Virus record (IMG/VR): IMGVR_UViG_3300034044_000048 | Coordinates: 2,245-66,244 of that record | Source: a virus | Lineage: Duplodnaviria > Caudoviricetes | Reading direction: 5' to 3' (one strand) | DNA length: 64,000 nt | Shown: piece by piece, positions 4,274 through 53,813 of the stretch | Layout of the letters: each line of letters begins with the position of its first letter | Position numbering within the stretch: the first letter of the stretch is position 1 | Notes under the pieces: generated by a model | Told to the model about the DNA's origin: nothing | What the model saw: only the letters and a program-made list of their open reading frames with translations | The model's database searches: none | Program-made: the position numbers and the translations under genes

Positions 4274-4287
4274 AATTCATATAAAAA

Positions 4288-37400: not shown

Positions 37401-40400
37401 AAAGAAAAATGGGAATCTTTAACTGAATTAGAAAAATTTAAAAAATCTTTTTTTTACTCAAAGTTTAGAAGATACGAAAATAAAATTTCTAAATATATTG
37501 AAGTTCAAAAAATATTATTAAAAAAAGAATTAGGACTTTATGATCAAAACTCAGATAAAACTAAATTGGTTTCTGTAATAAAAGAAGAGTTATCAAGAGA
37601 AGATTTAGCTGAACACGAATTAGATTTTATTAGAGTTGATGAAAATGGCAAATTAGATATTGATTTATCTTTTTCACCATCTGCAGCAAAAATAGAAAGA
37701 ACTTTAAATGCTATTGTTAATAACAGAATAGTTAAACAGAAAATGAAAGGGGAATCTTTAGTACAGGTTCCTACCACTTTGTTTGAACCAAGAAAAGCAA
37801 CACAAGCTGAAAAAAAGAAGTATGGTGCAACTAATGATATGAAAAGTTACACTAAAGATCCAAAAACAGGTAAAACAAATGCTGCAGAATTTAAAATAGC
37901 TTTACAAGGAGATTTTAAAAAACTTTTACATCTTAAACACAAAGATGGAAAAAAAATAATGGTATATAAGAAAAGAATTTATACAAAACCAGATGGTACA
38001 ACCAAATATATAAAAGAAGTTGATCAAAAAGAAAGTTTAAAAAGATTAAATGAAACTATTCAAGATGCTGAATGGAGAAGTAAAGAAGAAAATAAAAGAT
38101 TAATTTCAATGATTGGTGTTAGAATACCTGTACAAGGTTTAAATTCAATGGAACACATGATTGTTTGGGAATTTTTACCAGAAGAAGCTGGTAATATAAT
38201 TATCCCTCCATCAGAAATAGTTGCTAAATCAGGTGCCGATTTTGATGTTGATAAACTTACTGTTCTTTTTCCGGGATTAGAATTAATAAATGGTGAAGTT
38301 CATTTTATAGAAGATACTAATGATTCATCTAGTGCACAAGAATCATTAGACAAAGTAGAATCATTAAAGGAAAAAATAAAAGAATTAGAAAAACAAAAAA
38401 ATGATTTAAGAAAAAAATATTCTTTAGAATATTCAAAAATATCAAATTCTGAATTAACTGAAAAACAAAGGTTAGAGAGAAATGAAATATTGAAACCTTT
38501 TTATGATGAATCAGATGAATTAGAACCTTATGCTGACTTAATAGAATCGCAAATTGATAAATTAGAATCTATAAAAAATAAATCAAAAAAACAACAACAA
38601 AAGTTAGAAGAATTATATGAACAATATGATGATATAATGAATAAAATAGATGATTTATATGATAGATTTGAAAAAGCTAAAAAAGAAATAGGTAAAAAGT
38701 TTTTTGAAGAAAAGTTTAAAAAGTTTGAAGAAACAAGAGATGCTGAGTTAAATCCTGTTTTAAATGAACTTAAATCATTAAAATTAGAAACACTTTCTAA
38801 TAGCACAAGTGCAATTCAAAATTCAATATTAATTGAAATGAGAGATATATTGAGTTTAGAATATAATTTTTTAAATTTAATAAGACCTAATAGTACTGAT
38901 TTATTTACAAGTGGGGGAGGTATTGTAGATGAGATGTCTACATATAAAGATTCTTATTTTAAATCTACATCGCCAACAAGAGCTTTAGAACCAAAGAAAA
39001 ATGCAAATGTTCATGCAAGAAACTCTATTGGTAAAAGTACTTTAGGTATATCTGCTAATGCAAATGTCTTTAATACATTGTTAAATAGAATTGGTGCTGT
39101 ATTAAATCATTCTTATAGAACTAAAAAAGGTGAAAAAAGAAAAGTTTTTATAAAATTAAATCATAATAAAATAGGAAATAATATTTCATTAAGTAATATA
39201 TTTTCTAAAGATGGTGTTAGAATATCAGATATAATTAATCAATTAATGAATGGTTATGTTGATATTGCAAAAGAAGATTGGGTATTTGATATAAATGCAG
39301 GTCAAGAAGCTGCACCAACTTTATTATTTTTAATTATGGCAGGGGTTCCTTATAAAGAAGCTATTTATTTTTTATCAAATCCTTTAATTAAAGAATATAT
39401 AAAAGAAAGACAAAACTTAGCATCAAGTTTTAGTAAAGCTACTGGTTATTCAGCAGAATCTATTGTTTTTAATAAAAATAAAGCAAAATTTAACATTTTA
39501 TCAAAATTTGAAGAATTAGAATTTGTTTTAGACTATGATAAATCATCAGTTAAACAAGGAAAGTTATATAACTATACATATAATAAATTAAAAAAGGTAG
39601 ATACTTTTGATGTAGAAAGAATAGGAAAAATGTTTTTTGAAGAAGCTTTAGATGATGAAGAAGCTTTATTAGGGTTTTTACATTTTTTACAATTAGAAGA
39701 TATAGGTAAGCATTTAAACTATTTTAGAAAAGCTGTTAAGCTTGATACTGTTAAAAATACAACTTTATTTGATGCTATTAATAAAGAAAATGAAATCAAA
39801 AAATTAAGTGAAGTTGGTTTACTTGATGAAAGTTATATTAAAAAAGCCTTTGAAGAAACCCCAACTGGTAAATTTAGAGTTGGTCCATATCAACTTGAAT
39901 TATGGCAACCTTTATTTAAAATAAGAACACATCCAAGAGTTACAAGTTATTTAAGTGATGTTTATGACACTTATAAATTTAATAAAGATGTTAGAATGAC
40001 ATTTAACGATGAGGAAAAATACATAGAAGAATTTAAAAATGATTTAATAATTGCAATTTTTGAAAATAGTTTATTACCAAAATCAGAATCAATATTAAAT
40101 GAAGGTTCTTACAAAGGTGTAGAGATTATTAAAACAGATGAGGATTTATTAATAGAATTATTTGAAGAAGATGAGGAAATTAAGTTTAAAATAAATTTAG
40201 AAAAATTAAAAGAAGCTTATGATAAATCTTTATTTTCTGAAACTAAAAGTTCATTAGAAAATAGTTTTGATAAGTTAGGTTTAAACTCTTTACCTTTATA
40301 TACTTTTTCTGATGGGTACTTTGATTCTTTTTTTAATTATATGTTAGAGCTTACTTATTTAAGATATGATTTTCATATTGATTATTTAAAACATACAAGA

Positions 40401-43298
40401 TTATTTAATCAAGAATATGCAAAACATTATAACCAAATTGAAGATTTAGAAAAAGATGATCAAATAAACTTTGTTTATGAAAAACTTATATCAAAATTAG
40501 CTTTAAATAGAACTTTAAATCCAAGAAAAATATTTAAAAGTTCTGAATCTTTAGCAAATGAAATCTTTGAGTTAATGGATATTTACCCAGAATTAAAAGA
40601 AAAATATTATTTGCTATCACAATTAAAAATTTCAAGTACTAAAACTGATGATTCTAAAAAAATTAAAATAACCAATTTAGCATTAATTGATACAAAAGTT
40701 GATTCTGATATTTATAAGTTAATGAACTCAAATATGTTAGATTTAATGTCTGAAGATAACATATCAGTAAACGATAGTCCGGAAGGTGTTGATATTACTT
40801 GGTTTGAAAATAGATTAGTTGCTGAATATTTTAAAACTTTACAATATGCTGCTTTTATGCAATCTGGTTTAAATACTAAAGACTTTTTATCTTTAATAAG
40901 AATAATGGATCAATCTTTAATAGCTAAAGAATTAGACAATGTAAATATTGATTCGCTATTTTACAGACCAAATTTTTTTAAGGGATATAGCTCTTTATTT
41001 TATAATAATAATTCAATTAATAATGTTGCAAATAGAAAGAGATTTAAAAACTATTTTGATTCTATACTGTTTCATGGAATGTCTAAATCAAAAAGTGTTA
41101 ATACATCTGATGAAGAATCTTCTATTGATGAATCTTCAGTTTTAAATCCTGAAGATTTTGTAAATCATTCTGGTGGAGCCTATGGAGCAGATACATTATG
41201 GGACATTATAGGAAGAGAATTTGGAGTAACTGATCATAAGCATTACAGAGATAAAGAAAACTCTAATTTATCAAAGAAATTAAAAAACATCACTAATGCT
41301 ACTATTTTAACAAAAGATCAAATAAATGAAAGTAGAGAAAAAGTAAATAAATTACTCAATAAAAATTATAAAGATGATATACAAGGTAATTTACAAAGTC
41401 GTAATTATTACCAAGTTAAAAATGCAGATGCTGTATTTGCTATTTCTAAATTAAAAAACAATAAAAGAGAAGTTTCTGGAGGAACTAATACTGCTGTACA
41501 ATTAGCTATTATTATGGAAAAACCTGTTCATGTTTGGGATGTAAATACTGAAAAATGGTACACATATAAAAATGGAAAATTTGTTGAAGAAGATACACCT
41601 ACTTTAACAAAGAATTTTGCAGGTGTAGGTACAAGAGATATAGAAAATTATAATACATTTAATAAAGCTACTAAAAAATGGGAGTCTAGAGAACAATATG
41701 TTGGTGATGAAAAAGCCAAAAAGGCTGAGCAAGCTATAAGAGATGTATATGAAAAGACATTTAATAAAAAGTCATCACAAACTACACCTACATTACAAGA
41801 TGTATCAGAGTATTCAAATGGTAAAACAGAAAGTCCTAATGTTGTTATTCCAAAAAAGTCTTCTAAAATACAACCGCCTAAAGGTACTATTAATGTGTAT
41901 TGGGGACAAAGCGAATCAGAAAAATCTACAAGAATATTATCAAATCTTGCACCAAGAAAATTTACTTATACTAGTACAGATGGTATAGAAAGAGAATATG
42001 GTTCTGTCGAACATGCTTATCAATCTAATAAAAATGGTAAATTTGATAAAGCTGTATATGATGCTTATATTAAAAAGGGGGGATATGGTGTAAAAATATC
42101 TCCTAAATTAACTGAAGTTGGTAAGAGGGGTAATTTACAACTTATGAAAGATTTAGTTGTAGAATCTTTTATACAGAATCCTAATTCAGAAGCAGCCAAA
42201 AAATTATTAATGTATGAAAATTTTACTCATAATACTAATCAATTAATTGATAAAGCATTTTTAGAAGGATTAAAACTAGCACAAAAAGAATTATTTGAAA
42301 TAATAAAAGAAATAAATAAAAATGTTGATATATCTGATAATAAGACTTTTAACACTAAAGTGTCTATAATAGATAAATATGATGTTAATATAGTTAAAAA
42401 TAATCCTGATAAAATTTATATATTTGGAGATAATGTTGTAGGTAAAGGTAAAAAAGGACAAGCTATAATTAGAGATGAAGAAAATTCTTTTGGTATTCCT
42501 ACTAAAAAATTACCATTTACTTCTGAAGAATCTTACTTTTCCGATAAAGAATTTAAAGAAAACAAAGAGTATATTGATAAAGCTATAGATAAAATAAAAA
42601 AGGATGGAAGAGAAATAGTATTTCCGAAAGATGGTATAGGAACAGGATTAGCTAAATTAAAAGAGAAAGCTCCTAAAACTTGGGAATATTTAAATAAAAA
42701 GTTATTAGATGAATTTGGATTTAATAATGAAACAGGTGAAGTTATAAGACAACAATCACAAACTCAAGAAACAACACAACCTGTATCAGAAACACTGACA
42801 GGCAGAATACAAAAAAAATACCCAAAAGAAATTGAATGGGAAACTTTAGCTGGAAAAGCCGATACTAAAAAATTACAAGAAATTGCTAATTTAAAACCTA
42901 ATAAAATAGTTCCTTTTAAAAAGGGTACACCTTATGGGGATATTGTAGAGAAATTATATGGAAAACACGCAGCAAGATATGTAAGAGATACAGAATCAGA
43001 ACTTTCTGAAAATGAAGGAGAATTTTTAAGAGATAATCCGGAATTTGCTAAAAACTTTATATCAGATTTTTTAGAATCTGAATTAGGAGAAGGCGAAACA
43101 ATGCAATCTTTTGCTAAGAAATTACTTGAAAAATATGTAATTAAAATAGATACTTTTCAAACTTCATTGTTTGATAATTATTATGTATCAGAAATACTAA
43201 CAGAAAGTGGAGATACTATAGAATCATTAGGAATAACCCAAGAAGAATGGGATAACTTAACCCAAGAAGAAAAAGATAATATTATTAAATGCGGATAA
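31494..43298 (+). CDS. Giant virion-packaged RNA polymerase polyprotein (zincin + crAss-type RNAP + SLOG + NADAR-like + macro-like domains)
   Basis: RIPVQG (~38121) and SGADFDVDK catalytic motif (DFDVD 38238-38252); HESWH zincin motif at 33696-33710. The ATG at 31494 after an A-rich leader is preferred over the TTG at 31470. Confidence 0.85.
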   Translation: MNCALTPKKLENLYIYNFKILLKYTNDDKKEFNLKEHIKSIYDSIYNKSKDSNLATLYAQQVPRMTVLAISNDRELSKTIRKKGLDVAELYDFDDRYEDFEEVIKDLSNDSDQSVKEEDVESIRDEIKETAKRKQTNPKPEGTPEDIEKEEDKKESNKKEIKRDIYSAKPSTALALTGQEEKFNEETGLWEEDPEKSFYYDFLRLIFDKSNDGYIDAENLKIGNHKGFKIKVISKSKLPIDKAMPDEQELFKNEPSRMPDYEKGIGAFITDLEGNILYFDKNYNTVSKEEGMPIYFNLRTPIKNEDGSFYLMKAKIQTPEEILNNELRNGGFDVAEYKKEYPELYKQSLKEIYNVQQEELKQISKIRNALNEDKNKEFLLKINAVSRGMLNYSYNSYEDPNNINWDKSDVSFNPVKIINDGDVRPGEFKGGIFLRIPGQRSIRLQSKNISDKDINIILELLFNPDLKLNNKPLSFDMRKHLLETLVYTNKNSFQLIKSSDKFIVKVEGKLIDITSEKSLLEAKEKVKEILTKPYSKNSSFNTIYGIYNFKTNDKNNIDEVVSIKDNKVELKEVPFDVYAKSHTLLKINLSNKSEKTLKYANNYLMFSVEGEIVKEEEERKEEEGKEGIKKSDTSQKKIAKIKNPTIKKERKKIVRRKREKITRKKKDHLEANKKILLKNSKKQIDKAKKWFDNSELSKYIKLEDLTSIINSEAWAKFKDSAITLYKGSNYTLLYHESWHAFSQQFLSKTEQITLYKAFEKTRLGKDLIERKTEEEERELTEEEKYLVLEEYIAEDFREFMIYGTSELYDNKKVKSIFKRILNFLKSIFTKEGRFKLKIKKYFNDLKTGNFKQYDQSQLNYYFTGKDLHARFEPVEGVEEDYNISEDDTIRLIKSTDSLLLSLIHEENIKVKSSKFLMSVLQNPKKNLPFFMDKVYDKLIDRYNELIEELETIENDNEYLILDEKVNALETLISHFGLNEDNIFESTGFVKLYLEKSILNTLEVDLSKEQSFFEKQLSDKEESLLEKLDVYTKFLLSINKERDEYGNLVKDEFGVPKLLPFNDAYALIKSLSYQNNDSPKTIINKLKEELSNNRNYWVKELIDNLGDPNTGDTDLFRLQSKFWQDFFYSKTPLIQTNIDLKNQNSNTQQSRTVDVKVGEASAVHRNLANDITSHFKTVRSNRFIKFVEGVGNVLDTDAILKKYNEKYTASNNYNEFFKDIGLNLSYKPDLKNKDSDILRDAAGRFITLIREKNKIGYQITDIIKDLREKTIYYEKDVKKVLEGENTSLRNVLNLELKNSIKYANVGLSTPDGNVKFEDHQFSTIDILIKDINNLNHYSEIYKYPHLSEFWIENNDWVKNSAIFHSLFIWNESLQTFEDRNKSVKLEKKEISGTQVIEDDHSNLDYSAKTSNVDESTRILQDIHNGLLLGAFSNITPSDKGTIISVTTNVVSSYKNEDTASKTKRLYVDYQGFGKLVGKHNAAIVKAGNIMIGYLDAELKRINKVKKHQETGEELPNILGYTVPDSRGNIRGLEFGILDDVLNFKKGLKEKLLKLENADSLKSFENLELYNEFLDAVNDYFNWSYEQTLGAIEPSLFFITKEILNTAKKQLKDLGFENKDLTLEALRRVALKTYVVNSFLHHAENFIFSYGDLAQYKDIFKRNYAFQSQGNMHRTDQEAVDFVNGVLGRPFEKKYKKEKGIDEPIRRYDNKLNTVVFEEVTVQSELIGVNDDGSYKEYTKAVIEDLIERGYSKELAIEIEKIVNKAYYSMDEGDAGACLNFDTYRILSYLNDSWSDKQEELYQKILNNPEEILTTDILEYFPPRKFQYFGALEMSKFNAKALHKYSLFPLIPTVIKNTNLERLSEIMYEQGIDYATYESGSKVSTIVPKGKKSGETLYSDLKNRILESRENGEPLVKNVIYTHFLKDQLKINSKFKKKTIFSTQLRTLIEDSLIENGIPVDFEKDLPFFDRKEKWESLTELEKFKKSFFYSKFRRYENKISKYIEVQKILLKKELGLYDQNSDKTKLVSVIKEELSREDLAEHELDFIRVDENGKLDIDLSFSPSAAKIERTLNAIVNNRIVKQKMKGESLVQVPTTLFEPRKATQAEKKKYGATNDMKSYTKDPKTGKTNAAEFKIALQGDFKKLLHLKHKDGKKIMVYKKRIYTKPDGTTKYIKEVDQKESLKRLNETIQDAEWRSKEENKRLISMIGVRIPVQGLNSMEHMIVWEFLPEEAGNIIIPPSEIVAKSGADFDVDKLTVLFPGLELINGEVHFIEDTNDSSSAQESLDKVESLKEKIKELEKQKNDLRKKYSLEYSKISNSELTEKQRLERNEILKPFYDESDELEPYADLIESQIDKLESIKNKSKKQQQKLEELYEQYDDIMNKIDDLYDRFEKAKKEIGKKFFEEKFKKFEETRDAELNPVLNELKSLKLETLSNSTSAIQNSILIEMRDILSLEYNFLNLIRPNSTDLFTSGGGIVDEMSTYKDSYFKSTSPTRALEPKKNANVHARNSIGKSTLGISANANVFNTLLNRIGAVLNHSYRTKKGEKRKVFIKLNHNKIGNNISLSNIFSKDGVRISDIINQLMNGYVDIAKEDWVFDINAGQEAAPTLLFLIMAGVPYKEAIYFLSNPLIKEYIKERQNLASSFSKATGYSAESIVFNKNKAKFNILSKFEELEFVLDYDKSSVKQGKLYNYTYNKLKKVDTFDVERIGKMFFEEALDDEEALLGFLHFLQLEDIGKHLNYFRKAVKLDTVKNTTLFDAINKENEIKKLSEVGLLDESYIKKAFEETPTGKFRVGPYQLELWQPLFKIRTHPRVTSYLSDVYDTYKFNKDVRMTFNDEEKYIEEFKNDLIIAIFENSLLPKSESILNEGSYKGVEIIKTDEDLLIELFEEDEEIKFKINLEKLKEAYDKSLFSETKSSLENSFDKLGLNSLPLYTFSDGYFDSFFNYMLELTYLRYDFHIDYLKHTRLFNQEYAKHYNQIEDLEKDDQINFVYEKLISKLALNRTLNPRKIFKSSESLANEIFELMDIYPELKEKYYLLSQLKISSTKTDDSKKIKITNLALIDTKVDSDIYKLMNSNMLDLMSEDNISVNDSPEGVDITWFENRLVAEYFKTLQYAAFMQSGLNTKDFLSLIRIMDQSLIAKELDNVNIDSLFYRPNFFKGYSSLFYNNNSINNVANRKRFKNYFDSILFHGMSKSKSVNTSDEESSIDESSVLNPEDFVNHSGGAYGADTLWDIIGREFGVTDHKHYRDKENSNLSKKLKNITNATILTKDQINESREKVNKLLNKNYKDDIQGNLQSRNYYQVKNADAVFAISKLKNNKREVSGGTNTAVQLAIIMEKPVHVWDVNTEKWYTYKNGKFVEEDTPTLTKNFAGVGTRDIENYNTFNKATKKWESREQYVGDEKAKKAEQAIRDVYEKTFNKKSSQTTPTLQDVSEYSNGKTESPNVVIPKKSSKIQPPKGTINVYWGQSESEKSTRILSNLAPRKFTYTSTDGIEREYGSVEHAYQSNKNGKFDKAVYDAYIKKGGYGVKISPKLTEVGKRGNLQLMKDLVVESFIQNPNSEAAKKLLMYENFTHNTNQLIDKAFLEGLKLAQKELFEIIKEINKNVDISDNKTFNTKVSIIDKYDVNIVKNNPDKIYIFGDNVVGKGKKGQAIIRDEENSFGIPTKKLPFTSEESYFSDKEFKENKEYIDKAIDKIKKDGREIVFPKDGIGTGLAKLKEKAPKTWEYLNKKLLDEFGFNNETGEVIRQQSQTQETTQPVSETLTGRIQKKYPKEIEWETLAGKADTKKLQEIANLKPNKIVPFKKGTPYGDIVEKLYGKHAARYVRDTESELSENEGEFLRDNPEFAKNFISDFLESELGEGETMQSFAKKLLEKYVIKIDTFQTSLFDNYYVSEILTESGDTIESLGITQEEWDNLTQEEKDNIIKCG

Positions 43299-43321
43299 TA
43301 ATAAAAAATTAATAAATATAT

Positions 43322-46300
43322 ATGGCAAATTGTATAAATAAATCACTTCCTGAATTTAAAATTCTTGTTCAAAAAACAGGAATGAATAAACATATATTGG
43401 CTGCTAAAATAGCTATATGGCAAGATAAAAATAATACATTAGGTGTATTTCCAACAATAGAACAAATAATTGGTGATAACTCTACTAAATTAACAAATGT
43501 ATCTAATCAAGAAAGACTATATCAAAAAGGTTATATTAATGATAACTTAAAAGAAACTGAATTTGGTATTAGAGATTTAGCAGCAAGATTAGCTAATAGA
43601 ATTGGTGGAGAAGTTGAATTTATTTCTGATTTAACAAAAGATTTTTCTGGTTATAATGAAGGTAGTAAATATGTCATCAACTTAGCCAAAGCCACTTTAG
43701 ATACACCTATACATGAAATAGTAGGACATCCTATTATTAGAGCTATTAAAGATAATAAAACTATTAAAGACAACTATAAGGAATTACTGGATTCTGTTGA
43801 TAATATTGAAGGTGATTTTACTACTTATGAGAAAATAAATGGAAAATGGTATAGTGTATTTAATGGTATCAATGGAAGGGAATTAACTAAAGAAGACCCT
43901 AACTCTGATTCTTTTAAAACTGTAGTAAGAAATGCCAAATCTTTAAAAGACAAGTTTAAAAAAAGAGAAGAGTCTGAATTATATCAAAACTTACTAAAAG
44001 AACTTGAAACAGGTTATGGTAAAGAAGTATTAGATAGAATTAAAAAAGAGTATGTTTATAAAGAAATTAGTACTTCTTTACAAAATGAATTAAATGATGA
44101 GGATGATTTTGATTTTGATATAGCTAAAGAACTTGAAACTAAAACTTTAAATGGTAAAAAATATATACACAGAATACAAGATAATATAGGAAGATGGTAC
44201 GAACAAGTACCAATGTCTTTAGAAGAACAGCAGGAAGAGGCATTAGTACAATTATTAGGAGAACTTACAGCAGGGAAAATAAAAGAAACTAAAGAAAATA
44301 AAAATCTTATTAGTTTACTTAAACGGTTGTTAAAAGAAATGACTGCTTACATGAGAAGTTTATTTAACTCTAAAGAAATAGAGATAGATAAATTATCAGC
44401 AGATATGACATTAAACGACTTAGCTAATTTACTTGCTTATACGAATAGTAAAATTATATTACCTGGAAGTAGAGTTGAATATACTACTCCTGATAATAGT
44501 AAATTTAGTACTTATCAAGAAGCAAGTAATCATATTAGTAAATTGTTTAAAGAAAGTAAAGATGTTGATTTAAGTGATGTTGGTTTAGATTTAAGAAAAA
44601 AAGTAAATAATAGTATTGAAATTCCTGTTTCTAAATTTACAGATGAATTTACAAATGATGTATTCATTAAAAAAGACAATAGTTGGTACTATGAAAATAC
44701 TGACAAAAAAGTTGATGATGCGTTAATTATTCACACATGGAATAATAATATTTCTGATAATGTAATAGGTAAATCCGGAGTAGAAGGTTTTATAGAAAAA
44801 AATAAACCATTTGAACAATCTAAAGAAATAATAGAAATTTGGAAGAAAGAAAATAATATTAAATATAATCCTGAAGAAGTTTATTCAAGAGGGCAAGGTT
44901 TTTATTCTTCTATTGGTGCTTATAGTACTATAGAGTTAGATTTACTTTTACAAAATTTATTACACCATATTGAAGATAACAAAAAAGCTAGTGGTAAATT
45001 TGCTATATCTGCATTTACTAAACCTGTTGGTAAAAGAATAAAACATTTAGAAGGAGAATCTTCTGTTAGATTTAAAATATACCCTAAATCAGAAGATATA
45101 TTATGGGCAGCACCTACTGATGTATTTAGTGGAAGTGTATGGGATGCTAGTGAAAAAGTAAGTAAGAATAAAAAATCTGAATTACTAGGTGTATCTCATA
45201 CTAAAGCTCCTTCTTTAAATAATATCAATGAGGTAAGCCCTAATCTTGCCGATATTATTGATAAAAGAAGTCATGATCATAATGAATTGGGAATTGAATT
45301 AACTCATACTAATTTTAGATTAGAATATGATGAAACAGTTCCTTATGAAATTAAAAAACTTGTTAATTCTATTAATAGTATTTTAGATAGTAAATATGGT
45401 AAAATAGTTAAGCCTGAAATTAAACAAAAAGGAGAAAAAATAATACAATATGGTATATTTAGTGAAGGTGCAAATGATATATTAGACTGGTTTGATACAA
45501 AAGAAGAAGCTCAAGCTAAGGTTGATGAATCTAATCAACAGCTTATAGATTTAGGACTAAATCCTGATTTTAGTGTCAAACCTATTACCAAACCAATAGG
45601 TATCCAACCAACTAAAACTAAAGAAAATACTACAAGTATTGAGAGTGTTAAAGACAAGGTATTAAGAAATACTGATAAATATGTATTACAGCAACATGGG
45701 GATAAATTTGTAATATATGATATTGAAGAACAAGAACCTTTAGATATTTTTGAGAATAAAGAAAATGCTTTAAAAGAAATTAAAAAATTAACTGGACAAG
45801 AAAGCTTAAAAGAAAAAGAATACACTTCTCAAGCATTAACTAATACTAAAATAGCTATGCTTAAAGAAATAGCTAAAAAATACCCAAGAAGTTTAATTAC
45901 AAGTAAGGTAGTTAATAATCAAAGTAGTGAAAGACAGTATCAAAAAAATAAAAGAACTAAAGATGTATTTAATCAAAAAGAATTTAAAAATCAAGTTAAT
46001 TATTCATTAAAAACTGTTGATATATTATCTTCTGATAAAGCCAAACAAGTATTTGCTAAAGGAGAAAAGAATGGCTGGAGTTTAAATAAAATTCTAACAG
46101 AACTTCAAATACCTAAAGAACAAAAACAAATTATATTAGATAAGAATATAAAAAATCCTAATATACTTAACAGTAAAGAAGAGTTAGATAAAATAGCTAA
46201 TAGTAATTCCAGATTATCTAAAGTTGCTAAATTAATAGCTAATAAAATTTCAAGTGCTACTAATAGAATAGTTTATGCAGATTTTAATATTATTGATAAA

Positions 46301-47299
46301 AGTAACGCAGCCGGAGTAGCATATAGTTCTTTAGAAGATGGAATATTAAAAACAGATGTAGGATTAAATAAAAGTACTATAGAACAAGTAATTAAATATA
46401 GAAAAGATTTATCTGATTTTAAAGAAGAAACTATAGTTCACGAAGAAATACATAGATTTACTCAGTTATTATTTCAAATAGATAGAGTAAAAGGCGATAA
46501 AACATTAAAAGAAATAGGATTTAGTAAGGCTGAAATAGATTTTGTTGAAGAAGTAAAAAGTTTATATTCTCAATATAAAGCTACTAATAATACTAATAAT
46601 GATTTTAACCAACCTAATACTTCTATTGAAGAATTTATTACTTATGGTTTAACTAATGGTGAGTTTATTAAACACATATCTAAAATTAAAGTAAAAAATA
46701 CTACTGTATTAGAAAAATTAATATCTATACTGACTAAACTTTTTGGAAATGATATTTCTATTAAACAAGCATTAGATAAATCTTTTGAAGATTTTATGTT
46801 AGCAGATACCATATTAGAAGAAATATCTGAACAATCAGATTTTTTAAAACCTGATAATTTTAACCTAAGAGAAGAAATAATCACATCTTTATTAAATGAT
46901 GTTAATAAATTTAAAAATTTAAAAGATAATAGATCAACATTAGAAAAGGAATTAAAATTTAATTTTAAATCTTTTAAAGATGAAACAGAAGAAAATAAAA
47001 ATATAGAAGGTTTAAGATTAAAAATTGATCATTTTGAAGTAATTAAAAATGAAGATGGTTATTTTTATAATAACGGTAATGAAATTACAGATGAAACAAT
47101 AATTAATAAATTTGAAATTAGAAAAGAATTAAGAGAAGGTAAATTAAGAATTGGAGAATATAATAATAATAATTATTTTGTGCTATCAAATGGTAAGATA
47201 TTAGGCTCTGGTAAAACTAATTTAGGTAAAGAAACAATCTCAGATCCTAAAATAAAAGAAGAGATTTTAAAAAATGCTATTAAATATAAAAATTGTTAA
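43322..47299 (+). CDS. Large polyvalent-type cargo protein with two zincin-like motifs
   Basis: HEIVGH (43712-43729) with downstream EEALV, and HEEIH (46439-46453) with downstream EEFIT. Confidence 0.65.
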   Translation: MANCINKSLPEFKILVQKTGMNKHILAAKIAIWQDKNNTLGVFPTIEQIIGDNSTKLTNVSNQERLYQKGYINDNLKETEFGIRDLAARLANRIGGEVEFISDLTKDFSGYNEGSKYVINLAKATLDTPIHEIVGHPIIRAIKDNKTIKDNYKELLDSVDNIEGDFTTYEKINGKWYSVFNGINGRELTKEDPNSDSFKTVVRNAKSLKDKFKKREESELYQNLLKELETGYGKEVLDRIKKEYVYKEISTSLQNELNDEDDFDFDIAKELETKTLNGKKYIHRIQDNIGRWYEQVPMSLEEQQEEALVQLLGELTAGKIKETKENKNLISLLKRLLKEMTAYMRSLFNSKEIEIDKLSADMTLNDLANLLAYTNSKIILPGSRVEYTTPDNSKFSTYQEASNHISKLFKESKDVDLSDVGLDLRKKVNNSIEIPVSKFTDEFTNDVFIKKDNSWYYENTDKKVDDALIIHTWNNNISDNVIGKSGVEGFIEKNKPFEQSKEIIEIWKKENNIKYNPEEVYSRGQGFYSSIGAYSTIELDLLLQNLLHHIEDNKKASGKFAISAFTKPVGKRIKHLEGESSVRFKIYPKSEDILWAAPTDVFSGSVWDASEKVSKNKKSELLGVSHTKAPSLNNINEVSPNLADIIDKRSHDHNELGIELTHTNFRLEYDETVPYEIKKLVNSINSILDSKYGKIVKPEIKQKGEKIIQYGIFSEGANDILDWFDTKEEAQAKVDESNQQLIDLGLNPDFSVKPITKPIGIQPTKTKENTTSIESVKDKVLRNTDKYVLQQHGDKFVIYDIEEQEPLDIFENKENALKEIKKLTGQESLKEKEYTSQALTNTKIAMLKEIAKKYPRSLITSKVVNNQSSERQYQKNKRTKDVFNQKEFKNQVNYSLKTVDILSSDKAKQVFAKGEKNGWSLNKILTELQIPKEQKQIILDKNIKNPNILNSKEELDKIANSNSRLSKVAKLIANKISSATNRIVYADFNIIDKSNAAGVAYSSLEDGILKTDVGLNKSTIEQVIKYRKDLSDFKEETIVHEEIHRFTQLLFQIDRVKGDKTLKEIGFSKAEIDFVEEVKSLYSQYKATNNTNNDFNQPNTSIEEFITYGLTNGEFIKHISKIKVKNTTVLEKLISILTKLFGNDISIKQALDKSFEDFMLADTILEEISEQSDFLKPDNFNLREEIITSLLNDVNKFKNLKDNRSTLEKELKFNFKSFKDETEENKNIEGLRLKIDHFEVIKNEDGYFYNNGNEITDETIINKFEIRKELREGKLRIGEYNNNNYFVLSNGKILGSGKTNLGKETISDPKIKEEILKNAIKYKNC

Positions 47300-47302
47300 A
47301 AT

Positions 47303-48259
47303 ATGGCAGGAACATGTAACATAAAAAAAGAAATTAGAAAAAAAGTTAATAAAGAAATTTATGAAATTTATAAAAATTATGAAGTATTAAACTCTTTTTC
47401 TAAAGCAACTGAATTAAATAATAAAATTAATAATTTATATAATTACAATATATCAAAGATAATACCTATAGATGATAAATTCAAAGTAGCAATAAAAGAA
47501 AACAATTTGGAAAAAGTTATTGAAGAAAAAACAATAAAACAAATTTCTTTACAAGAAAAACTTGAAAAAACACATTCCTTTTTAAAAGATGATTTATTTG
47601 TATCTAATAAAACATCTAAAAAAAATAATATTAAGGAAGAAGTTAAAAATGACAAATATTCATCTAAATTATTACTTGAATCAATTAAAAAGCATTATGG
47701 AGATGATGCTTATGAAGTGAGAAGAAATCTTATTGAAGATATTGGTAATATTTTTAAAGGTAATGCTAATTCAATAGTGATTAATGAAGAATTTCCATCA
47801 TTAATAACTGTTAATTATAATAAAAGATTTAGACCTAAAACTGATAAACAAGCTAAAGCTATGTTAATTTCTAATATAGAAAGGGTTAGAAAAAGAATAT
47901 CTGAAAAGTTAGGAGATAAAGTTAAAGCGGACCAATGGATAAAATTTGGATTTAATGGAAATAATCATTATGTTTCAATTAACATTCCTAATAATTTTCT
48001 AGTTTTTATTAATGAAGAATTTGAAAAATATTATATAGAAGAAGAGCATAAAATAAATAATACTAAAACATTTACAGGTAGAAATTTAGATTATTTTAAT
48101 AATGATGAAGCTTTATATGAACAAGAAGAACTTAATTTAAATAATTTAACTAAATTAGAAGTTTTAAATAATTTTACAAAAAGTGAATGGTCTAAATTGA
48201 CTTATAAAGAAAAAAATAAAATAAACAAAGAGGGAACAAAAGATGAAATGTGCGATTAA
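47303..48259 (+). CDS. Hypothetical cargo protein with terminal cysteines
   Basis: 318 aa; MAGTC start, MCD end; C-terminal motif resembles that of the RNAP polyprotein. Confidence 0.55.
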   Translation: MAGTCNIKKEIRKKVNKEIYEIYKNYEVLNSFSKATELNNKINNLYNYNISKIIPIDDKFKVAIKENNLEKVIEEKTIKQISLQEKLEKTHSFLKDDLFVSNKTSKKNNIKEEVKNDKYSSKLLLESIKKHYGDDAYEVRRNLIEDIGNIFKGNANSIVINEEFPSLITVNYNKRFRPKTDKQAKAMLISNIERVRKRISEKLGDKVKADQWIKFGFNGNNHYVSINIPNNFLVFINEEFEKYYIEEEHKINNTKTFTGRNLDYFNNDEALYEQEELNLNNLTKLEVLNNFTKSEWSKLTYKEKNKINKEGTKDEMCD

Positions 48260-51200
48260 AACAGATGCTGAATTTATTCAGTTACAAGAAGAGCTTAAAA
48301 TTGATAAAAACAGCTTATTGGTAAGAACTGCTTTATGGATTAAAGAAAACAATTCAGACAGATACCCAACACCTAATGAATTGAAAAAGTTTTATGAAGA
48401 TAATTTTGATGTAATTCCTTTTGAAAAGGCTGTTAAAGACTTTTTTAATGAGAAAAAACAAACTATAGAAAAATCAGAAGATTTTTTAATTGAGTTTAGC
48501 TCTAAATTGACTTCTAATTTAGGTCTGAAAAATAACATAATTGAATTTATAACACCTGAAAATGCAAAAATATTAACTCAAGATAGTAAAAATCCATATA
48601 CAAATCAAAAATCTTTTTTTTATAAAGGGAAAATCTATTTTGTTAAAGGCAATTTTAATTTTGAAACTGTTATTCATGAGTTTTCACACATTTTTGTTAA
48701 AGCTATCTCAATTGATAATGAAAAATTATTTAATAAACTTTTTGATGATATAATAAAAACAGATAAAGGTAAATTATTTTTAAAAGAATCCTTAGAAGAA
48801 TATCCAGGTCTTACAAAAAACCACTCTCAAATAAAAGAAGAAGTTATTGTAAAAACAATTACTGATTATCATTTAAATAATTCTAATGAAACTAAAAATA
48901 TTATTGATAGAATTATTTTTGCAATAAAACAATTAATAAGAAAAATATTTAAAGTTAATCCTAAAAATCTTTCATTAAATACATCAATTAAAGAATTATC
49001 TGAACTAATAGTTGATGGTTCTTGGAATGTAAACATGAATGTAATATCAGATTCTAATATTGTTTCTTATTTAAGTGAATACAAAGAAAGATATAAAAGT
49101 TTTAAAAAAGCTTTTGAATCAGAAGAAGGTAGAATGGCTATATTGCATCAATTAACTCTAAATTCTAAAATAGTAAGAAATCAATTAAAAAGATTATCTG
49201 AAACTGAAGACAATATAAAAGAACAATTAACAGAAACTTTCACTACACTATCAGATGAGTTTTTATTTGATGTAATGCAGTCTAATATAGGAAAACAATT
49301 AGATAGTAGAGAAAAAATAAAATTAGCAGCTTCAGAAAAAATTGATGAATTAAAAGAGTTTGAGAAAAAAATTGAAGCTCTTGCTTTTAATTTAGATACT
49401 TTAGATGAGATGTTAATAAATATAGAAAGTGATATAGCATATATGAAAACATCTCCAGGTTATATAGAAAATTTAAAAAAGACTGCTTTTTATGATGAAA
49501 GTTTAGACCAATGGATTAAATATTTAGAAGAATTTAAACTCAATTTAGAAGATTCAAATGTTAGCATAGTATCTGCTCTTTATAAAGATATATCTGAACT
49601 GCAAGATAAGGCTACTATTTTAAAAAGAAAAGCTAAAAAAATATATGAAAAAGGTATGGGAAAAACTTTAAGTGAAGTTTTTGAACCTACTAAAGATAAA
49701 ATGCTTGAACATTTTAATGAACAAATAGCAGAAAAAGAAAAACAATTAAAAAAAGTTAAAAAAGGTACTAAAGTATATGATCTTTTAGTTAAAGATATTG
49801 AAGGTTTAAAAAAAGTTATTGAAAGAATTAATATTGATCCAGAAGAAATGATAAAACATTTAACTGGTAAAAAAGGAGATATTGGTTTTTTACATGCATA
49901 TCTTGAAAATTTCTTATCAAATCAAGATCCTTCAATTGCTTCATTTGCTTTATTTGTCAAAGAACATTTGAGTAATACACAAGCTAAAGTTCATAATGAT
50001 TATTCAGAATTTCTTACAAAAATATCACCTAAGTTAAATAAACTAGGAGTAAAACCTTCAGAAATGTCAAAATTTGCTAAATTGTTTTTATTTACTGATA
50101 AAACTTATAAGTATAATGATGATGGAGAAATTGAAGAATTTGAAGTTTTAACTTATTTAAATGAATATCAGAATTATAAATATACATTAAAGAAAATTAA
50201 TCACGAATTAGAAAAAGCTAATTTAAATTATGATAGAAAAAGAACTCCTGAAAATTTAAAAAAACTTGAAGAAATTCAAAAGTTAAAAGACACACATCTT
50301 GATTTGTTTTTTAAAAAGAAATTTGTTGATGAATTTTATCAAGCAAATAAAATATTAGATAATTCAAAATATGGAGAAGAATTAAAAAATGAAATAGAAA
50401 GAATCTTTTCAGAAATTAGAATGTATCAAAGTTCACATCCAGATCCTCATGTTGTTTATGATGATTATGAAATAGTAGAATCTTTATTATCAGAATATAA
50501 ATCTTTATTTAGTTTACATGACAAATATGGTAATAAAAAAACAGGTGAAGAGTTAGAAAAAGCTGAAATTTTAAACAAATGGAGAAATGAGAAAAATAAA
50601 TTTTATAGATGGGAAACTAAACATGGAGCTTTTAAATCTGCTTATGAGAATTTTATAAAAAAATTAGAAATCAGTTTAGAAAAACAAAATATTAAAAAAG
50701 GTTCTGAAGAATGGGATATTGAGTACAATAAACAAAAAAAAGAATGGGAAAGATTAAATCTTTCTACAAAGATAAAAGATTCTTTTTATGAAGAAAGATC
50801 TAAAATATTAAGTTTAATAAATGAAATATTAGGAAGAGAAGAACAAGATCTTCCGGAGTATTATGAAGACATTATTGACAATTTAAATCCTGAAAAAGAT
50901 TCTGATGGTATTCCTAATGGAACCATAATGACAGAAGAAAAATTAAAAAATATTTTAGAATTAAATAAAAAAGCTGAAGAACTAAGAGAAATTTCATCAC
51001 AAAATACTTTATCTTTTTCAGAAAAAAAAGAATTAAATTTATTAATTAGAAAATTAGCAAGCGGTAAAACATTAACTGAAAAAGAAATAAAAAGAAAAAA
51101 AGAATTAGAACAAAAAAATAAACCTTTAAGTAAAGCTTTAAAAACTCAATTAAATATTTTGTATCAAAAGTTAAATAAATTACAAGAAAGAACACCAACT

Positions 51201-53813
51201 AATTATTATTATGATATTTTAAATAACTTTTATAGAAAGATCCAAATAGCTGATGGAGTAGAAGATGGGGATATAGAAGTAATTACAAGCGACAACATTA
51301 AAAAATTCAAAAATCCATTTTTTATTGAAAGAATTTTAGAAAAAGATGAAGAATTTAAAAATTGGTTTTTGAATAATCATTATGAAAAAGAAGTATTTAA
51401 TACTAAAACTTTTGAAAAAGAAATTATATATGAACCTTCACATGCCTGGACTTATGTTAAACCAAGAGATGAGAAATATTATGAAAAAACTGAAATATTA
51501 GAAGAAGATGGTATAACAGTTAAAGAAGTTTTACATGGTGTACCTAATATGAAATATAAGGAAAAAATAGTTAAAGATGAATACTATGTAGGATATGATA
51601 AAGAAACAGGTAAAATAGATAATTCAGTTTGGAAAGATGTTCAAGGTAACCAATTACCTAAATCTTTAGAAGAAATGGAAAAAGTAGATAAAGATTTACT
51701 TGATGAACATAATATTGAATTAGAAAAGTTTTTTGGAAATAAATTTTCTTATGATCATTACATTAACAGAAATTATTTAAAATTAAAAGAAGAAAATGAT
51801 ACAAGATTTGAAGTATTAGAAGAATTAAAAAATTTTCATTTAAAAAATCAAGAAAAAGCTCATAAACATGCAAGATTAGGTTATGAATTACCAAGATTTA
51901 GAAAAACTACTGATCAATATATATTAAATAGTTCAACTGATGATGATAATAAATCAATAGGTGGAAGATTATGGGGTGGTATTTCTGCAAAATTTGTAAA
52001 AAAGGCAGATGATTTTGAAGAAGTAGGTGCTAATTTTGATTCTGAAGCTTTATATGTTGATTTAGATATATTTGCTAATGATAATGTTAAAATACCTGTA
52101 AGAGGTAAGTTTAATTTACCTATAGATCAAGTTAATTTAGATGTTATAGGCTCTACAATGGCATATTATTTATCAATTGAACAACATCAAACTTTATCTA
52201 AATTGCATCCTTTTGCTAGAGCTATGTCTAGATTATCTGAAGAAAACCCTGTTGATATTAAAAAAGTTTTAATTAATAGTTATACTAAAAGATTAATACC
52301 TGGAAAAACTAATAATAGAAAAGAAGTAATTGAAGCTATGATTGCTATGACCTTTGAAGGAAAAAAATTAAAAGATAGCAATAATAATGCAACTTTAATT
52401 AGAATCATGAATACTATGTTAAAGACAGCTTCTCATACTTATTTTGCTTTAGATGTTCAATCAGCTGTAAAGAACTATTTAGGTGCTAGATGGCAAATTT
52501 CTCAAGAATCTTTTAGAGGAAAATATTACACATATAAAGATTATGTAAAAGCAAGACCTTGGGCTGTAAAAACATCAACTCAAATATCACAAGAAATATA
52601 TAGTACAACTGCTAAATCTTTAAATGTACAATTAACGGAAGTTTTTGATGTTCCTCAAGGTAGAATGACTTCTAAATTTGGAGAATCTCCTGGGAGGTCT
52701 TTAAAAAGAGATGTTTTTAATTTTACTTGGTTTACTTCACACAGAAAATGGTTAGAATTAGAAGCAAGTTTAGAGCAATTTGGAGCATTGATGAATGCAA
52801 CAATGATAAAAATTAAAACAGAAGATGGAGAAAAGGAAATAAGTTATTTAAAAGCTTGGGAAATAGATGAAAAAGGAAGACTTAAATTAAAAGAAGGAAT
52901 TGATAAAAAATATGATATTAATGGTTCTGAATTTAATAGACTTAAACATTTAAATCATGAACTATCTAATAAAAAACAAGGGGCTTATGCAGAATTAGAA
53001 CAACCTGCTGCTTCAAGATATTTAATGTTTAGACCTGTAATAGCTTTAAAAAAATATTTTAGTCCTATGTTGATAGATAGATGGGGTCATGTAAATTTAA
53101 GATGGGAGTCTGGTCTTAGAGCGGATCCTAGAATTAATCTAGGAATGGGTCAAGAGCATATGGGTTGGTATATTCAAAATTTAGTAACTTTTTCAAAATT
53201 AATTGAAAGTAGATTCAAATATGCACTTACCATGACTAAAGAAGAAAAAAGAGCTTTAATGTTAGGAGCTTTAGGTGTGCTAAGATTAAAAGTTTTCTCT
53301 TTAATATTAACCCTTCTATGGGATCTTACTGATGGAATGTGGGGTTGGGATGATGATGATGAAGATAGAAATGATAAATTAAAAGCTAGAAGTGGGGCTC
53401 TTCCTTCTTTTTGGACAGAAGAAAAATATACTAAAGATTTTAATGTAGTCGGTTGGTTATCTTCTCATTTAACTCTTATGGCTATTGAAGCTCAATCTGA
53501 ATATGAAAATTTTATACCTTTACCAGGATATGGTCTTAATTCTCAATATCAAACAGTTGCAGAAGATTTTTCTATTGCTTTTGGAGGTTCTATAAAAATT
53601 TATAGAAATATATTGGAAGATCTATATTTTACAGCTACAGGAAATAAAATAGTTGAATATCAAAAAAAAGCCGGTGTTATGAAGTTTCAACAAGAGGGTT
53701 CTAATAAATTTTGGGCTGATTTTTGGAGATTAGTTGGTGTAAAAGAAAAATACTTCGATCCTTCAAAAGGTATTAAAAATAGACATTCAATTTCAACCTC
53801 ATATAGAAGATAA
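48243..53813 (+). CDS. Large ejection/cargo protein with N-terminal zincin and C-terminal hydrophobic helix
   Basis: HEFSH (48675-48689) plus EEVIV; ALMLGALGVLRLKVFSLILTLLW near the C-terminus; last gene of the plus-strand block. Confidence 0.65.
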   Translation: MKCAIKTDAEFIQLQEELKIDKNSLLVRTALWIKENNSDRYPTPNELKKFYEDNFDVIPFEKAVKDFFNEKKQTIEKSEDFLIEFSSKLTSNLGLKNNIIEFITPENAKILTQDSKNPYTNQKSFFYKGKIYFVKGNFNFETVIHEFSHIFVKAISIDNEKLFNKLFDDIIKTDKGKLFLKESLEEYPGLTKNHSQIKEEVIVKTITDYHLNNSNETKNIIDRIIFAIKQLIRKIFKVNPKNLSLNTSIKELSELIVDGSWNVNMNVISDSNIVSYLSEYKERYKSFKKAFESEEGRMAILHQLTLNSKIVRNQLKRLSETEDNIKEQLTETFTTLSDEFLFDVMQSNIGKQLDSREKIKLAASEKIDELKEFEKKIEALAFNLDTLDEMLINIESDIAYMKTSPGYIENLKKTAFYDESLDQWIKYLEEFKLNLEDSNVSIVSALYKDISELQDKATILKRKAKKIYEKGMGKTLSEVFEPTKDKMLEHFNEQIAEKEKQLKKVKKGTKVYDLLVKDIEGLKKVIERINIDPEEMIKHLTGKKGDIGFLHAYLENFLSNQDPSIASFALFVKEHLSNTQAKVHNDYSEFLTKISPKLNKLGVKPSEMSKFAKLFLFTDKTYKYNDDGEIEEFEVLTYLNEYQNYKYTLKKINHELEKANLNYDRKRTPENLKKLEEIQKLKDTHLDLFFKKKFVDEFYQANKILDNSKYGEELKNEIERIFSEIRMYQSSHPDPHVVYDDYEIVESLLSEYKSLFSLHDKYGNKKTGEELEKAEILNKWRNEKNKFYRWETKHGAFKSAYENFIKKLEISLEKQNIKKGSEEWDIEYNKQKKEWERLNLSTKIKDSFYEERSKILSLINEILGREEQDLPEYYEDIIDNLNPEKDSDGIPNGTIMTEEKLKNILELNKKAEELREISSQNTLSFSEKKELNLLIRKLASGKTLTEKEIKRKKELEQKNKPLSKALKTQLNILYQKLNKLQERTPTNYYYDILNNFYRKIQIADGVEDGDIEVITSDNIKKFKNPFFIERILEKDEEFKNWFLNNHYEKEVFNTKTFEKEIIYEPSHAWTYVKPRDEKYYEKTEILEEDGITVKEVLHGVPNMKYKEKIVKDEYYVGYDKETGKIDNSVWKDVQGNQLPKSLEEMEKVDKDLLDEHNIELEKFFGNKFSYDHYINRNYLKLKEENDTRFEVLEELKNFHLKNQEKAHKHARLGYELPRFRKTTDQYILNSSTDDDNKSIGGRLWGGISAKFVKKADDFEEVGANFDSEALYVDLDIFANDNVKIPVRGKFNLPIDQVNLDVIGSTMAYYLSIEQHQTLSKLHPFARAMSRLSEENPVDIKKVLINSYTKRLIPGKTNNRKEVIEAMIAMTFEGKKLKDSNNNATLIRIMNTMLKTASHTYFALDVQSAVKNYLGARWQISQESFRGKYYTYKDYVKARPWAVKTSTQISQEIYSTTAKSLNVQLTEVFDVPQGRMTSKFGESPGRSLKRDVFNFTWFTSHRKWLELEASLEQFGALMNATMIKIKTEDGEKEISYLKAWEIDEKGRLKLKEGIDKKYDINGSEFNRLKHLNHELSNKKQGAYAELEQPAASRYLMFRPVIALKKYFSPMLIDRWGHVNLRWESGLRADPRINLGMGQEHMGWYIQNLVTFSKLIESRFKYALTMTKEEKRALMLGALGVLRLKVFSLILTLLWDLTDGMWGWDDDDEDRNDKLKARSGALPSFWTEEKYTKDFNVVGWLSSHLTLMAIEAQSEYENFIPLPGYGLNSQYQTVAEDFSIAFGGSIKIYRNILEDLYFTATGNKIVEYQKKAGVMKFQQEGSNKFWADFWRLVGVKEKYFDPSKGIKNRHSISTSYRR

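Follow-up and report, generated by a model that had tools for sequence, protein, structure and literature searches.

Paired terminal cysteines at the protein junctions of a virion RNA polymerase module in a crAss-like phage, and a possible end-to-end chain of packaged proteins

In polyketide synthases (PKS) and nonribosomal peptide synthetases (NRPS), separate polypeptides are ordered by docking domains, which are short helical elements at C- and N-termini that form cognate pairs and are portable. Here, we describe the ends of five consecutive giant proteins, among them a putative virion RNA polymerase (RNAP), encoded in a window of 64,000 nucleotides (nt) of viral DNA (IMG/VR virus record IMGVR_UViG_3300034044_000048, positions 2,245 to 66,244), and we consider whether these ends could join the proteins into a chain. 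The window covers 64,000 of the 66,244 bases of the record, which is rated 55% complete.

The closest described systems come from two groups of phages, and the articles on them are cited here by identifier for the searched parts of their text. The ejection proteins of Schitoviridae (the virion RNAP gp50 of N4; gp71 to gp73 of DEV) have nearly abolished cysteine (Cys), with 0.00075% Cys in gp71 homologues as against 0.865% proteome-wide, which was attributed to passage through the oxidising periplasm (PMC11445570). The RNAP module of phi14:2 consists of three proteins that are present in virions and are fused in some phages (bioRxiv 10.1101/2020.03.07.982082). The crAss001 proteins gp47, gp49 and gp50 are likewise in the virion but were not resolved in its structure; interchain disulfides were described in the same particle for the tail hub, the ring proteins and gp57, and both reduced and non-reduced mass-spectrometry runs were made on crAss001 virions (PMC10172136). 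In the Protein Data Bank (PDB), the sole solved structure for the module is that of gp66 alone (6VR4), with nothing for g065.

The window is AT-rich (about 25% G+C). Its structural block lies on the + strand, where a 1612-aa open reading frame (ORF) that matches virion structural PHROGs is followed by five consecutive giant ORFs of 1543, 3934, 1325, 318 and 1856 aa. The 3934-aa product is homologous by BLASTP to gp66 of phi14:2 (g066, E 3e-18), gp50 of crAss001 (E 1e-18) and gp44 of the prototypical crAssphage (p-crAssphage; E 5e-12), and tblastn with it matched 56 phage records, nearly all with crAss-type names. The layout is that of the Crassvirales RNAP module, with a large partner upstream of the RNAP and a zincin-bearing partner downstream, after the tail and muzzle genes; a homologue of the 1543-aa protein stands directly upstream of the RNAP in all five relatives whose whole chain could be read. 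Judged by this homology and gene order, the window contains the virion-packaged RNAP module of a crAss-like phage that is divergent and belongs only distantly to the crass-like group. The five chain members and their Cys are as follows.

26845..31476, + strand: first chain member, 1543 aa; the single Cys is the last residue (codon 31471-31473), and an N-terminal Cys is absent.
31494..43298, + strand: giant virion RNAP-like protein, 3934 aa from ATG, with BLASTP homology to crass RNAPs; Cys3 (31500-31502), Cys3933 (43290-43292) and one internal Cys at 1776.
43322..47299, + strand: inserted cargo protein, 1325 aa; the only Cys are Cys4 (43331-43333) and the last residue, Cys1325 (47294-47296).
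47303..48259, + strand: inserted orphan protein, 318 aa; the only Cys are Cys5 (47315-47317) and Cys317 (48251-48253).
48243..53813, + strand: last chain member, 1856 aa; the single Cys is at position 3 (48249-48251), with no C-terminal Cys and an HExxH motif at 146-150.

These positions give one Cys on each side of each of the four junctions.

Junction 1543 / RNAP: upstream C1543, downstream C3.
Junction RNAP / 1325: upstream C3933, downstream C4.
Junction 1325 / 318: upstream C1325, downstream C5.
Junction 318 / 1856: upstream C317, downstream C3.

Thus, the five proteins, with about 8,976 residues between them, have only 9 Cys, of which 8 stand no more than 5 residues from one of the eight junction-facing ends, a placement within 40 named positions for which our own arithmetic gives a chance of about 1e-18. 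The outer ends of the chain are free of Cys, at the N-terminus of the first protein and at the C-terminus of the last. The 318-aa and 1856-aa genes overlap, and their two Cys codons, read in different frames, have one base in common. The protein that precedes the chain (1240 aa) has two Cys (128 and 133), neither of them terminal, and the chain is therefore taken to begin at the 1543-aa protein; the start of the 1543-aa ORF (26845-26876) overlaps the end of the 1240-aa ORF by 32 nt. An earlier, sequence-only reading of this DNA had drawn attention to similar tail and head motifs at two of the junctions. The junction Cys pair, which that reading did not single out, is a stronger signal than the motifs.

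The conservation of the pair was examined in related viral loci, which are referred to by L numbers. Searches for related loci with the 1856-aa or the 318-aa protein as the only query returned no relatives, and 68 loci were gathered with an alignment of distant 1856-aa homologues. Seven such homologues (22-35% identity) all have a Cys at position 3-6 and contain 1-3 Cys in total, none of them C-terminal. The junction upstream of the matched protein, read from the first ATG per frame, was readable in 63 of the 68 loci; four of the five that were dropped had no upstream ORF of at least 150 aa within 150 nt, and one had a cut ORF. In all 63 junctions (49 non-redundant pairs), a Cys is present among the final 10 residues of the upstream protein and another among the initial 10 of the downstream protein, the tail Cys standing 1-8 residues from the end and the head Cys at position 3-8. 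A further 13 of 13 loci with heads of the window type, obtained in a second search, have both junction Cys. Apart from their 113 junction Cys, the 113 non-redundant chain proteins (249,538 aa) contain only 17 Cys (0.007%), compared with 284 Cys in 49,365 aa (0.575%) in the other ORFs of the same loci, so that Cys away from the junctions is about 80-fold depleted. Among 56 other complete ORFs taken as background, a Cys lies within 10 residues of the N-terminus in 11 and within 10 of the C-terminus in 5; five of the 12 ORFs behind these counts (four of which have Cys at both ends) are chain members of dropped junctions or secondary members.

The pattern is also polar. A Cys in the last 10 residues was found in none of 56 complete last members, and the small inserted proteins of L015, L027, L039/L041, L096, L099 and L088 have Cys at both ends. 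In the five relatives read over the whole chain, all five show a C-terminal Cys only, Cys at both ends and an N-terminal Cys only in successive members. The 1543-aa homologues in these relatives (1645-2206 aa) have one Cys each, within the last 1-2 residues, and neither end of the protein that precedes the chain has a Cys. The RNAPs begin with M.C, 1-3 nt past the upstream stop, and have their first Cys at 3-4 in all five; the four that are complete have only one other Cys, placed in the last 1-3 residues, and the fifth is truncated at the 3' end in its locus. The Cys of the third member is at 3-5 in all five.

Nine of ten named crassviruses have the junction Cys pair. In phi14:2, the only Cys of the module are C1797 of g067, C3 and C2179 of g066, and C3 of g065. 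In crAss001, gp47 has C2339 only, gp50 has C5, C2404 and one internal Cys, and gp49 has C5 only, and cr128_1 is similar; the pair is also kept in cr108_1, cr118_1, gp45/gp44 of the prototypical crAssphage, cr4_1, cr52_1 and cr7_1. The p-crAssphage gp44 is, by BLASTP, a fusion of gp50-like and gp49-like proteins, and no Cys is present in the estimated fusion zone (about residues 2370-2680). The gap between junction genes ranges from -13 to +34 nt, and in crAss001 and cr128_1 the gp47 gene is on the strand opposite gp50 with the pair retained. Pairing is therefore independent of gene adjacency, and the opposite strands together with the variable gaps remove an explanation at the nucleotide level.

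Several irregularities of gene structure were observed in the same loci. The RNAP homologue of L038 is split into ORFs of 1422 aa and 1226 aa with a 147-nt gap (4282-4429), and about 480 query residues are unmatched; the split may be an intron or an assembly fault. In cr108_1 (L073, 21845-22136), the RNAP is annotated as two ORFs, with the break inside the catalytic aspartate motif, a 290-nt gap and no Cys pair, and here an intron or assembly fault is likelier than a true junction. L094 and L097, at about 10001-10240 and at the upstream ORF ends, have in-frame TGA where relatives carry Trp, for example ...N*PT versus ...(W/F)PT in a head, and ETQES*DAK (L097) versus ETQESWDAK (L094); as far as such codon matches tell, these phages probably read TGA as Trp, with the giant ORFs looking fragmented under translation table 11. 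Under the same table, the annotated giant proteins of L101, L102, L103 and L104 (cr4_1, cr273_1, cr7_1 and cr52_1) contain 5-148 in-frame stops, which fits the stop-codon recoding known for some Suoliviridae.

The motifs of the sequence-only reading were then compared with these data. It had named four peptides at the ends of the RNAP, 318-aa, 1325-aa and 1856-aa proteins, and all four are present in the ORFs: the RNAP ends in ...ITQEEWDNLTQEEKDNIIKCG, the 318-aa protein ends in ...FTKSEWSKLTYKEKNKINKEGTKDEMCD, the 1325-aa protein begins with MANCINKSLPEF...IWQDKNN...FPT, and the 1856-aa protein begins with MKCAIKTDAEF...LWIKENN...YPT. The elements are located as follows.

43230..43295, + strand: RNAP tail, with 8-residue units ITQEEWDN / LTQEEKDN, then IIKCG; tail profile E 2.1e-5.
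43322..43456, + strand: 1325-aa head domain, residues 1-45, with Cys and then a predicted three-helix module; head profile E 2.6e-8.
48170..48256, + strand: 318-aa tail, with units FTKSEWSK / LTYKEKNK, then ...EMCD; BLASTP to the RNAP tail 10/22, E 0.016.
48243..48371, + strand: 1856-aa head domain, residues 1-43; head profile E 0.019, BLASTP to the 1325-aa head 13/42.

Both window tails are internal tandems of two 8-residue units, and in the RNAP tail the two units are encoded by a 22-nt direct repeat (43234-43279) with 86% identity and 24-nt spacing. The two heads match by BLASTP over residues 4-45 and 3-43 at 13 of 42 positions (E 0.11 in the whole 1325 x 1856 aa space), and the two tails at 10 of 22 (E 0.016 in a 199 x 318 aa space); since both kinds of element sit at extreme termini, the chance of these matches would be lower if position were restricted. 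The pairwise values are modest, and the elements were therefore tested with profiles free of window sequence. A head profile of 13 sequences from other phages, searched against 17,079 six-frame segments, matched the 1325-aa N-terminus at E 2.6e-8 and, as a borderline case over model positions 1-52, the 1856-aa N-terminus at E 0.019; the best unrelated match was at E 0.43, and the significant matches were all at extreme N-termini of large proteins. A tail profile of 6 sequences from other phages, searched against 22,675 segments, matched the RNAP C-terminus at E 2.1e-5, ending one residue short of the end, with the next unrelated match at E 0.71. By these independent profiles, three of the four elements are members of sequence families; the 318-aa tail, which the tail profile did not match, is a weak family member by its pairwise likeness.

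The observation that the same tail type is followed by the same head type at two junctions thus held, with the 318-aa tail as its weakest element, and the flanking sequences of the other two junctions do differ, as had been said. Recent duplication of the junctions was considered and rejected, since a DNA repeat search found none linking the two in the window. Across the sequences compared, the constant feature of every junction is the lone Cys on each side and not the helix motifs, which vary between clades and junctions.

Of the reading of the ends as portable docking domains, the portability is supported by comparison for the head and in part for the tail. In a profile search of 1.84 billion proteins, the head matched 649 representatives at a threshold of E <= 1e-3, of which 109 reached E <= 1e-10. 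Among the best 150 of the 649, the first Cys is at position 3-6 in 146, three others have mis-called starts and one is without Cys; 40 of the 48 matched proteins of at least 1000 aa have exactly one Cys. The head occurs on unrelated bodies: gp49/g065-type proteins, the catalytic RNAPs P0085 and P0144 (which also carry a C-terminal Cys), the 1325-aa homologue P0149 and an 1856-like protein. The AlphaFold2 model of the 1325-aa head (mean predicted local distance difference test score, pLDDT, 76) has helices at 10-19, 23-37 and 46-51, after the Cys, and gave no PDB match by Foldseek at E <= 0.001. Tail units of the form T..E(W/F)..L...E(E/K) stand directly before a window-type head in six other loci (L088, L092, L094, L095, L097 and L100, the last with F), and the same tail/head pair type joins gp47 to gp50 in crAss001 and cr128_1. 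The position of this pair type thus varies: it occupies junction 1 in crAss001 and junction 2 in other clades, and the window has it at two junctions. The expectation that the two motifs occur as adjacent pairs in phage genomes was borne out in the six loci, but only some of the junctions with such heads have the tail motif, which is not constant across junctions. In type-B relatives, the tails have a W..LT.E.K element further upstream and then an extra helix, and a tail profile built from their last 45 residues did not match the window tails. Head and tail types go together by clade. In one short protein of the head search (P0098, 129 aa), a tail-like sequence with a W..LS.EEQ element runs into an MKC... 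head with no stop between them, probably as a frameshifted gene call, although a natural fusion is conceivable.

The 1325-aa and 318-aa proteins had been viewed as a cassette slotted between the RNAP and the 1856-aa protein, with relatives lacking it expected to join the RNAP directly to the 1856-aa homologue. The gene order of relatives agrees with both points: in L002-L038, the upstream ORF is an RNAP homologue (E from 0.0 to 1e-65) and the downstream ORF is an 1856-aa homologue, and neither inserted protein has a BLASTP match at E <= 1e-5 across the 68 loci. The two proteins are therefore an insert with compatible ends. Some relatives have 500-1,750 extra residues fused to the N-terminus of the 1856-aa homologue instead of an insert. 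P0149 (1075 aa) is 47.5% identical to the 1325-aa protein over 461 aligned positions and has Cys4 and a last-residue Cys, and P0121 has one segment in common with the 1325-aa protein. No homologue of near length was found for the 318-aa protein besides itself, in a search that covered near lengths only.

Candidate domains of the polyvalent type in the chain are HExxH motifs identified by eye, a DprA-like PHROG domain and DUF7831. The 1325-aa protein has two HExxH motifs, and in the HExxH of the 1856-aa protein E146 and H149 are invariant in the alignment of homologues. The homologues P0001 and P0002 carry PF18760, which we take to be the family named ART-PolyVal. The DprA-like domain (residues 3215-3358) and DUF7831 (3632-3735) are C-terminal add-ons of the RNAP (window about 41000-43200) that are not present in phi14:2 gp66, and L057-L064 and L069 have parts of RNAP residues about 3456-3776 in common with the window. 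Pfam and PHROGs gave no family for the heads, the tails or the 1325-aa, 318-aa and 1856-aa proteins, apart from a weak match of the RNAP tail to phrog_8831 (E 8.6e-4), and Pfam gave no peptidase match for the HExxH motifs. Among deposited phages, the 1856-aa protein matches cr118_1 only, over 7% of its length.

Two properties of the Cys pattern bear directly on its meaning: its polarity argues for pairing between neighbours, and the near-total loss of other Cys argues for a thiol chemistry that must not be scrambled. We propose, with somewhat more confidence than doubt, that cognate docking ends and an interchain disulfide tie the virion-packaged proteins of the RNAP module into an ordered chain. 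The chain would run head to tail in the order of the genes (1543 ~ RNAP ~ 1325 ~ 318 ~ 1856). At each joint, the short amphipathic helical tail of the upstream protein would dock non-covalently with the small helical head of the downstream protein, and this docking would set the order; the Cys within 1-8 residues of each joining end would then form an interchain disulfide outside the reducing cytoplasm, and the remainder of each protein, being nearly Cys-free, could not form wrong disulfides. Such a chain would give equimolar co-packaging and could be pulled as a single thread of unfolded protein through the narrow tail, after which reduction of the links in the host cytoplasm would release the individual proteins. 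The 1325-aa and 318-aa insert, with its compatible head and tail, would be extra cargo carried in the chain. Native-chemical or intein-type ligation was rejected as a mode of joining, given that the Cys is at position 3-8 and not at the very N-terminus and that there is no intein-sized element. A wider proposal is made more tentatively, and we would lean slightly against it as matters stand: that Crassvirales at large load RNAP and effectors as a single covalent "protein train", in which orthogonal tail/head codes fix the order, disulfides lock the couplings, the host cytoplasm uncouples them after passage through the tail, and inserted genes with compatible ends add cargo.

The binding of tail to head, which the sequence-only reading had proposed, is weakly favoured by a complex prediction for the RNAP tail (60 aa) and the 1325-aa head (60 aa). 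The median interaction prediction score from aligned errors (ipSAE) was 0.41, with 0.00 for the best of 3 controls, the runs agreed in at least 90% of contacts and the partner pLDDT was at least 69. Among solved complexes, 58 of 80 reached this mark, as did 2 of 110 mismatched pairs; marks at 0.60 or under comprised 7 of the 80 solved complexes and both passing mismatches, counts that are approximate here because a custom alignment was used.

A number of points weigh against the proposed chain. Unless the pairing was already likely on other grounds, a complex prediction that passes at this level is wrong in more cases than it is right. The 318-aa tail was not matched by the tail profile, so that its likeness to the RNAP tail is pairwise only; a strict pattern for the tail element, which proved too strict for a good test, matched 4 of the 17 non-redundant junctions with head B, none of the 32 other junctions and 8 of the 1,802 background windows. 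The co-variation of head and tail types is not independent evidence, because the types follow clades and are confounded by descent. The upstream protein of cr273_1 has no tail Cys (it ends in ...DIDF with two stops, while the next protein keeps Cys3; L102, 24066-24161), and cr273_1 is the sole examined crassvirus whose giant protein before the junction has no terminal Cys; with this exception and the 9-14 Cys per protein in cr273_1 and cr7_1, the rule is therefore relaxed in some Suoliviridae. The two parts of the split RNAP in L038 have no terminal Cys. The lone end Cys could instead form homodimers or, in middle members, an intramolecular N-to-C link. Finally, the habitat of gut crassviruses is anoxic, although disulfides do occur in the crAss001 tail.

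The last points lead to other accounts of the same ends. Heads and tails might be packaging or ejection signals read by a third component (the portal, a scaffold, the inner surface of the capsid or the tail barrel), with the Cys linking there or homodimerising. N-terminal capsid-targeting peptides exist in other phages such as T4. In crAss001, the cargo protein gp45 binds the portal and the tail barrel (PMC10172136). The complex prediction is weak, and sequence cannot separate hetero- from homo-pairing. Independent signals would not need the strict polarity that end-to-end pairing predicts, as seen in the last members (none of 56 with a C-terminal Cys), the five whole chains, phi14:2 and crAss001; moreover, inserted proteins always have both ends, tail and head types change together, and the candidate partners are not Cys-depleted, which leaves one Cys per end without a reason. 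We regard a third component or homodimer as unlikely. Neighbours might also be joined through metal, either at a Zn or Fe-S site shared by several ends or by a "cysteine switch" of the matrix metalloprotease type, which would cap the HExxH zinc and keep it latent until ejection. Many head-bearing proteins do have an HExxH domain about 100 residues past the head, and HExxH is present in both the 1325-aa and the 1856-aa protein. The pattern with which the relatives were found came from this domain, and in the distant loci L045-L069 the match is confined to the region around query residues 86-304, where the domain lies. The complementarity of the ends would fit any Cys-to-Cys bridge. A usual Zn site would need more than one Cys per end, however, no conserved His or Cys partner was seen adjoining the ends, and several head-side proteins have no HExxH near the head by eye (none was seen in the 318-aa protein, and that of the window RNAP is at about residue 720). 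A metal link or switch thus appears quite improbable.

It might further be held that the feature has no function of its own and is due to chance, is the leftover of a polyprotein cut into genes, or is the by-product of a nucleotide signal for translational coupling. The module proteins are fused in some crassviruses (bioRxiv 10.1101/2020.03.07.982082), the junction genes are tightly spaced, and the codon is TGT for 44 of 49 tail Cys and 43 of 49 head Cys, though this is expected in AT-rich DNA. Against this, the feature is kept at 22-35% protein identity and across families, while the Cys position and the gene gap vary (1-8 residues from the end; -13 to +34 nt). The pair is retained where the genes are on opposite strands, Cys is 80-fold depleted elsewhere and no DNA repeat links the two window junctions. 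An absence of function is disfavoured and, in our estimate, very improbable; its nucleotide-level or translational-coupling form is rejected.

Outside the chain, the replication genes are to its right on the - strand and include a PD-(D/E)XK nuclease, a Prim-Pol domain protein and a MoxR-like AAA ATPase (58443-59889 and 63067-63834). No thioredoxin was seen among the ten ORFs scanned; thioredoxin genes are annotated around the RNAP module in the regions fetched for p-crAssphage, cr108_1 and cr128_1. In the structural block, proteins at 4288-4833, 5040-7103, 8970-9737 and 9740-10069 have Cys-rich ends (...NCSTC, ...KGCE, MAEDCKKENCNPC..., MASCGCIRCNN...), in contrast with the Cys-poor cargo chain; these ends may be disulfide or metal sites in the tail or fibres.

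Literature searches on crass-phage disulfides, cysteine and virion RNAP found no report of cargo-end Cys or end-to-end linkage. The word "cysteine" is absent from the searched text of PMC10172136, bioRxiv 10.1101/2020.03.07.982082 and PMC5512222, and "disulfide" from that of the latter two, supplementary tables lying outside that text. As far as the compared sequences reach, the Cys-capped design of the ends runs through the crAss phage order, and no earlier description of it was found. It bears on the question of how about 5 MDa of cargo protein is packed by crassviruses in the right amounts and ejected in order through a narrow tail. A conserved, complementary code of Cys-capped ends is a concrete hypothesis that is testable in two cultured systems, phi14:2 and crAss001, and it would account for giant proteins that are nearly Cys-free yet always keep one end Cys. 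It also offers a simple rule, based on sequence, by which ejected cargo could be recognised in uncultured crass-like phages, and a route by which new effectors could join the injected set. If true, it would be a general, undescribed principle of ordered, stoichiometric protein delivery in a virus group that is among the most abundant in the human gut, and a natural handle for putting foreign proteins into crassvirus particles.

In comparison with known systems, the 1543-aa protein, the RNAP and the 1856-aa protein hold the same places, in the same order, as g067/g066/g065 of phi14:2 and gp47/gp50/gp49 of crAss001, and the window differs from these modules in its two extra inserted proteins. 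The crAss001 disulfides are a precedent for disulfides between different virion proteins in a crassvirus particle; they stabilise a fixed tail and portal vertex, whereas the links proposed here would join mobile cargo end to end. The chain proteins share Cys depletion with the Schitoviridae ejection proteins (0.007% versus 0.575% in other ORFs), but those have no conserved Cys, while Crassvirales keep exactly one per junction-facing end (63 of 63 junctions). The polyvalent proteins of phages and conjugative elements, as covered in the searched text of PMC5512222, are similar in being giant multi-domain proteins delivered with DNA, with zincin-like HExxH motifs and domain shuffling, and differ in having many domains in one polypeptide, perhaps cut by a peptidase, where the window has separate polypeptides that are apparently joined at their ends. 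The analogy with PKS/NRPS docking domains, drawn in the sequence-only reading, applies to function and not to descent, given that the termini have no Pfam family at E <= 0.1 and that the head model has no PDB match at E <= 0.001. The likeness lies in short helical end elements, in cognate pairs that would set the order (binding being predicted here) and in portability; the difference lies in the setting, which is a phage virion, and in a conserved Cys pair at each joint, which suggests a covalent lock.

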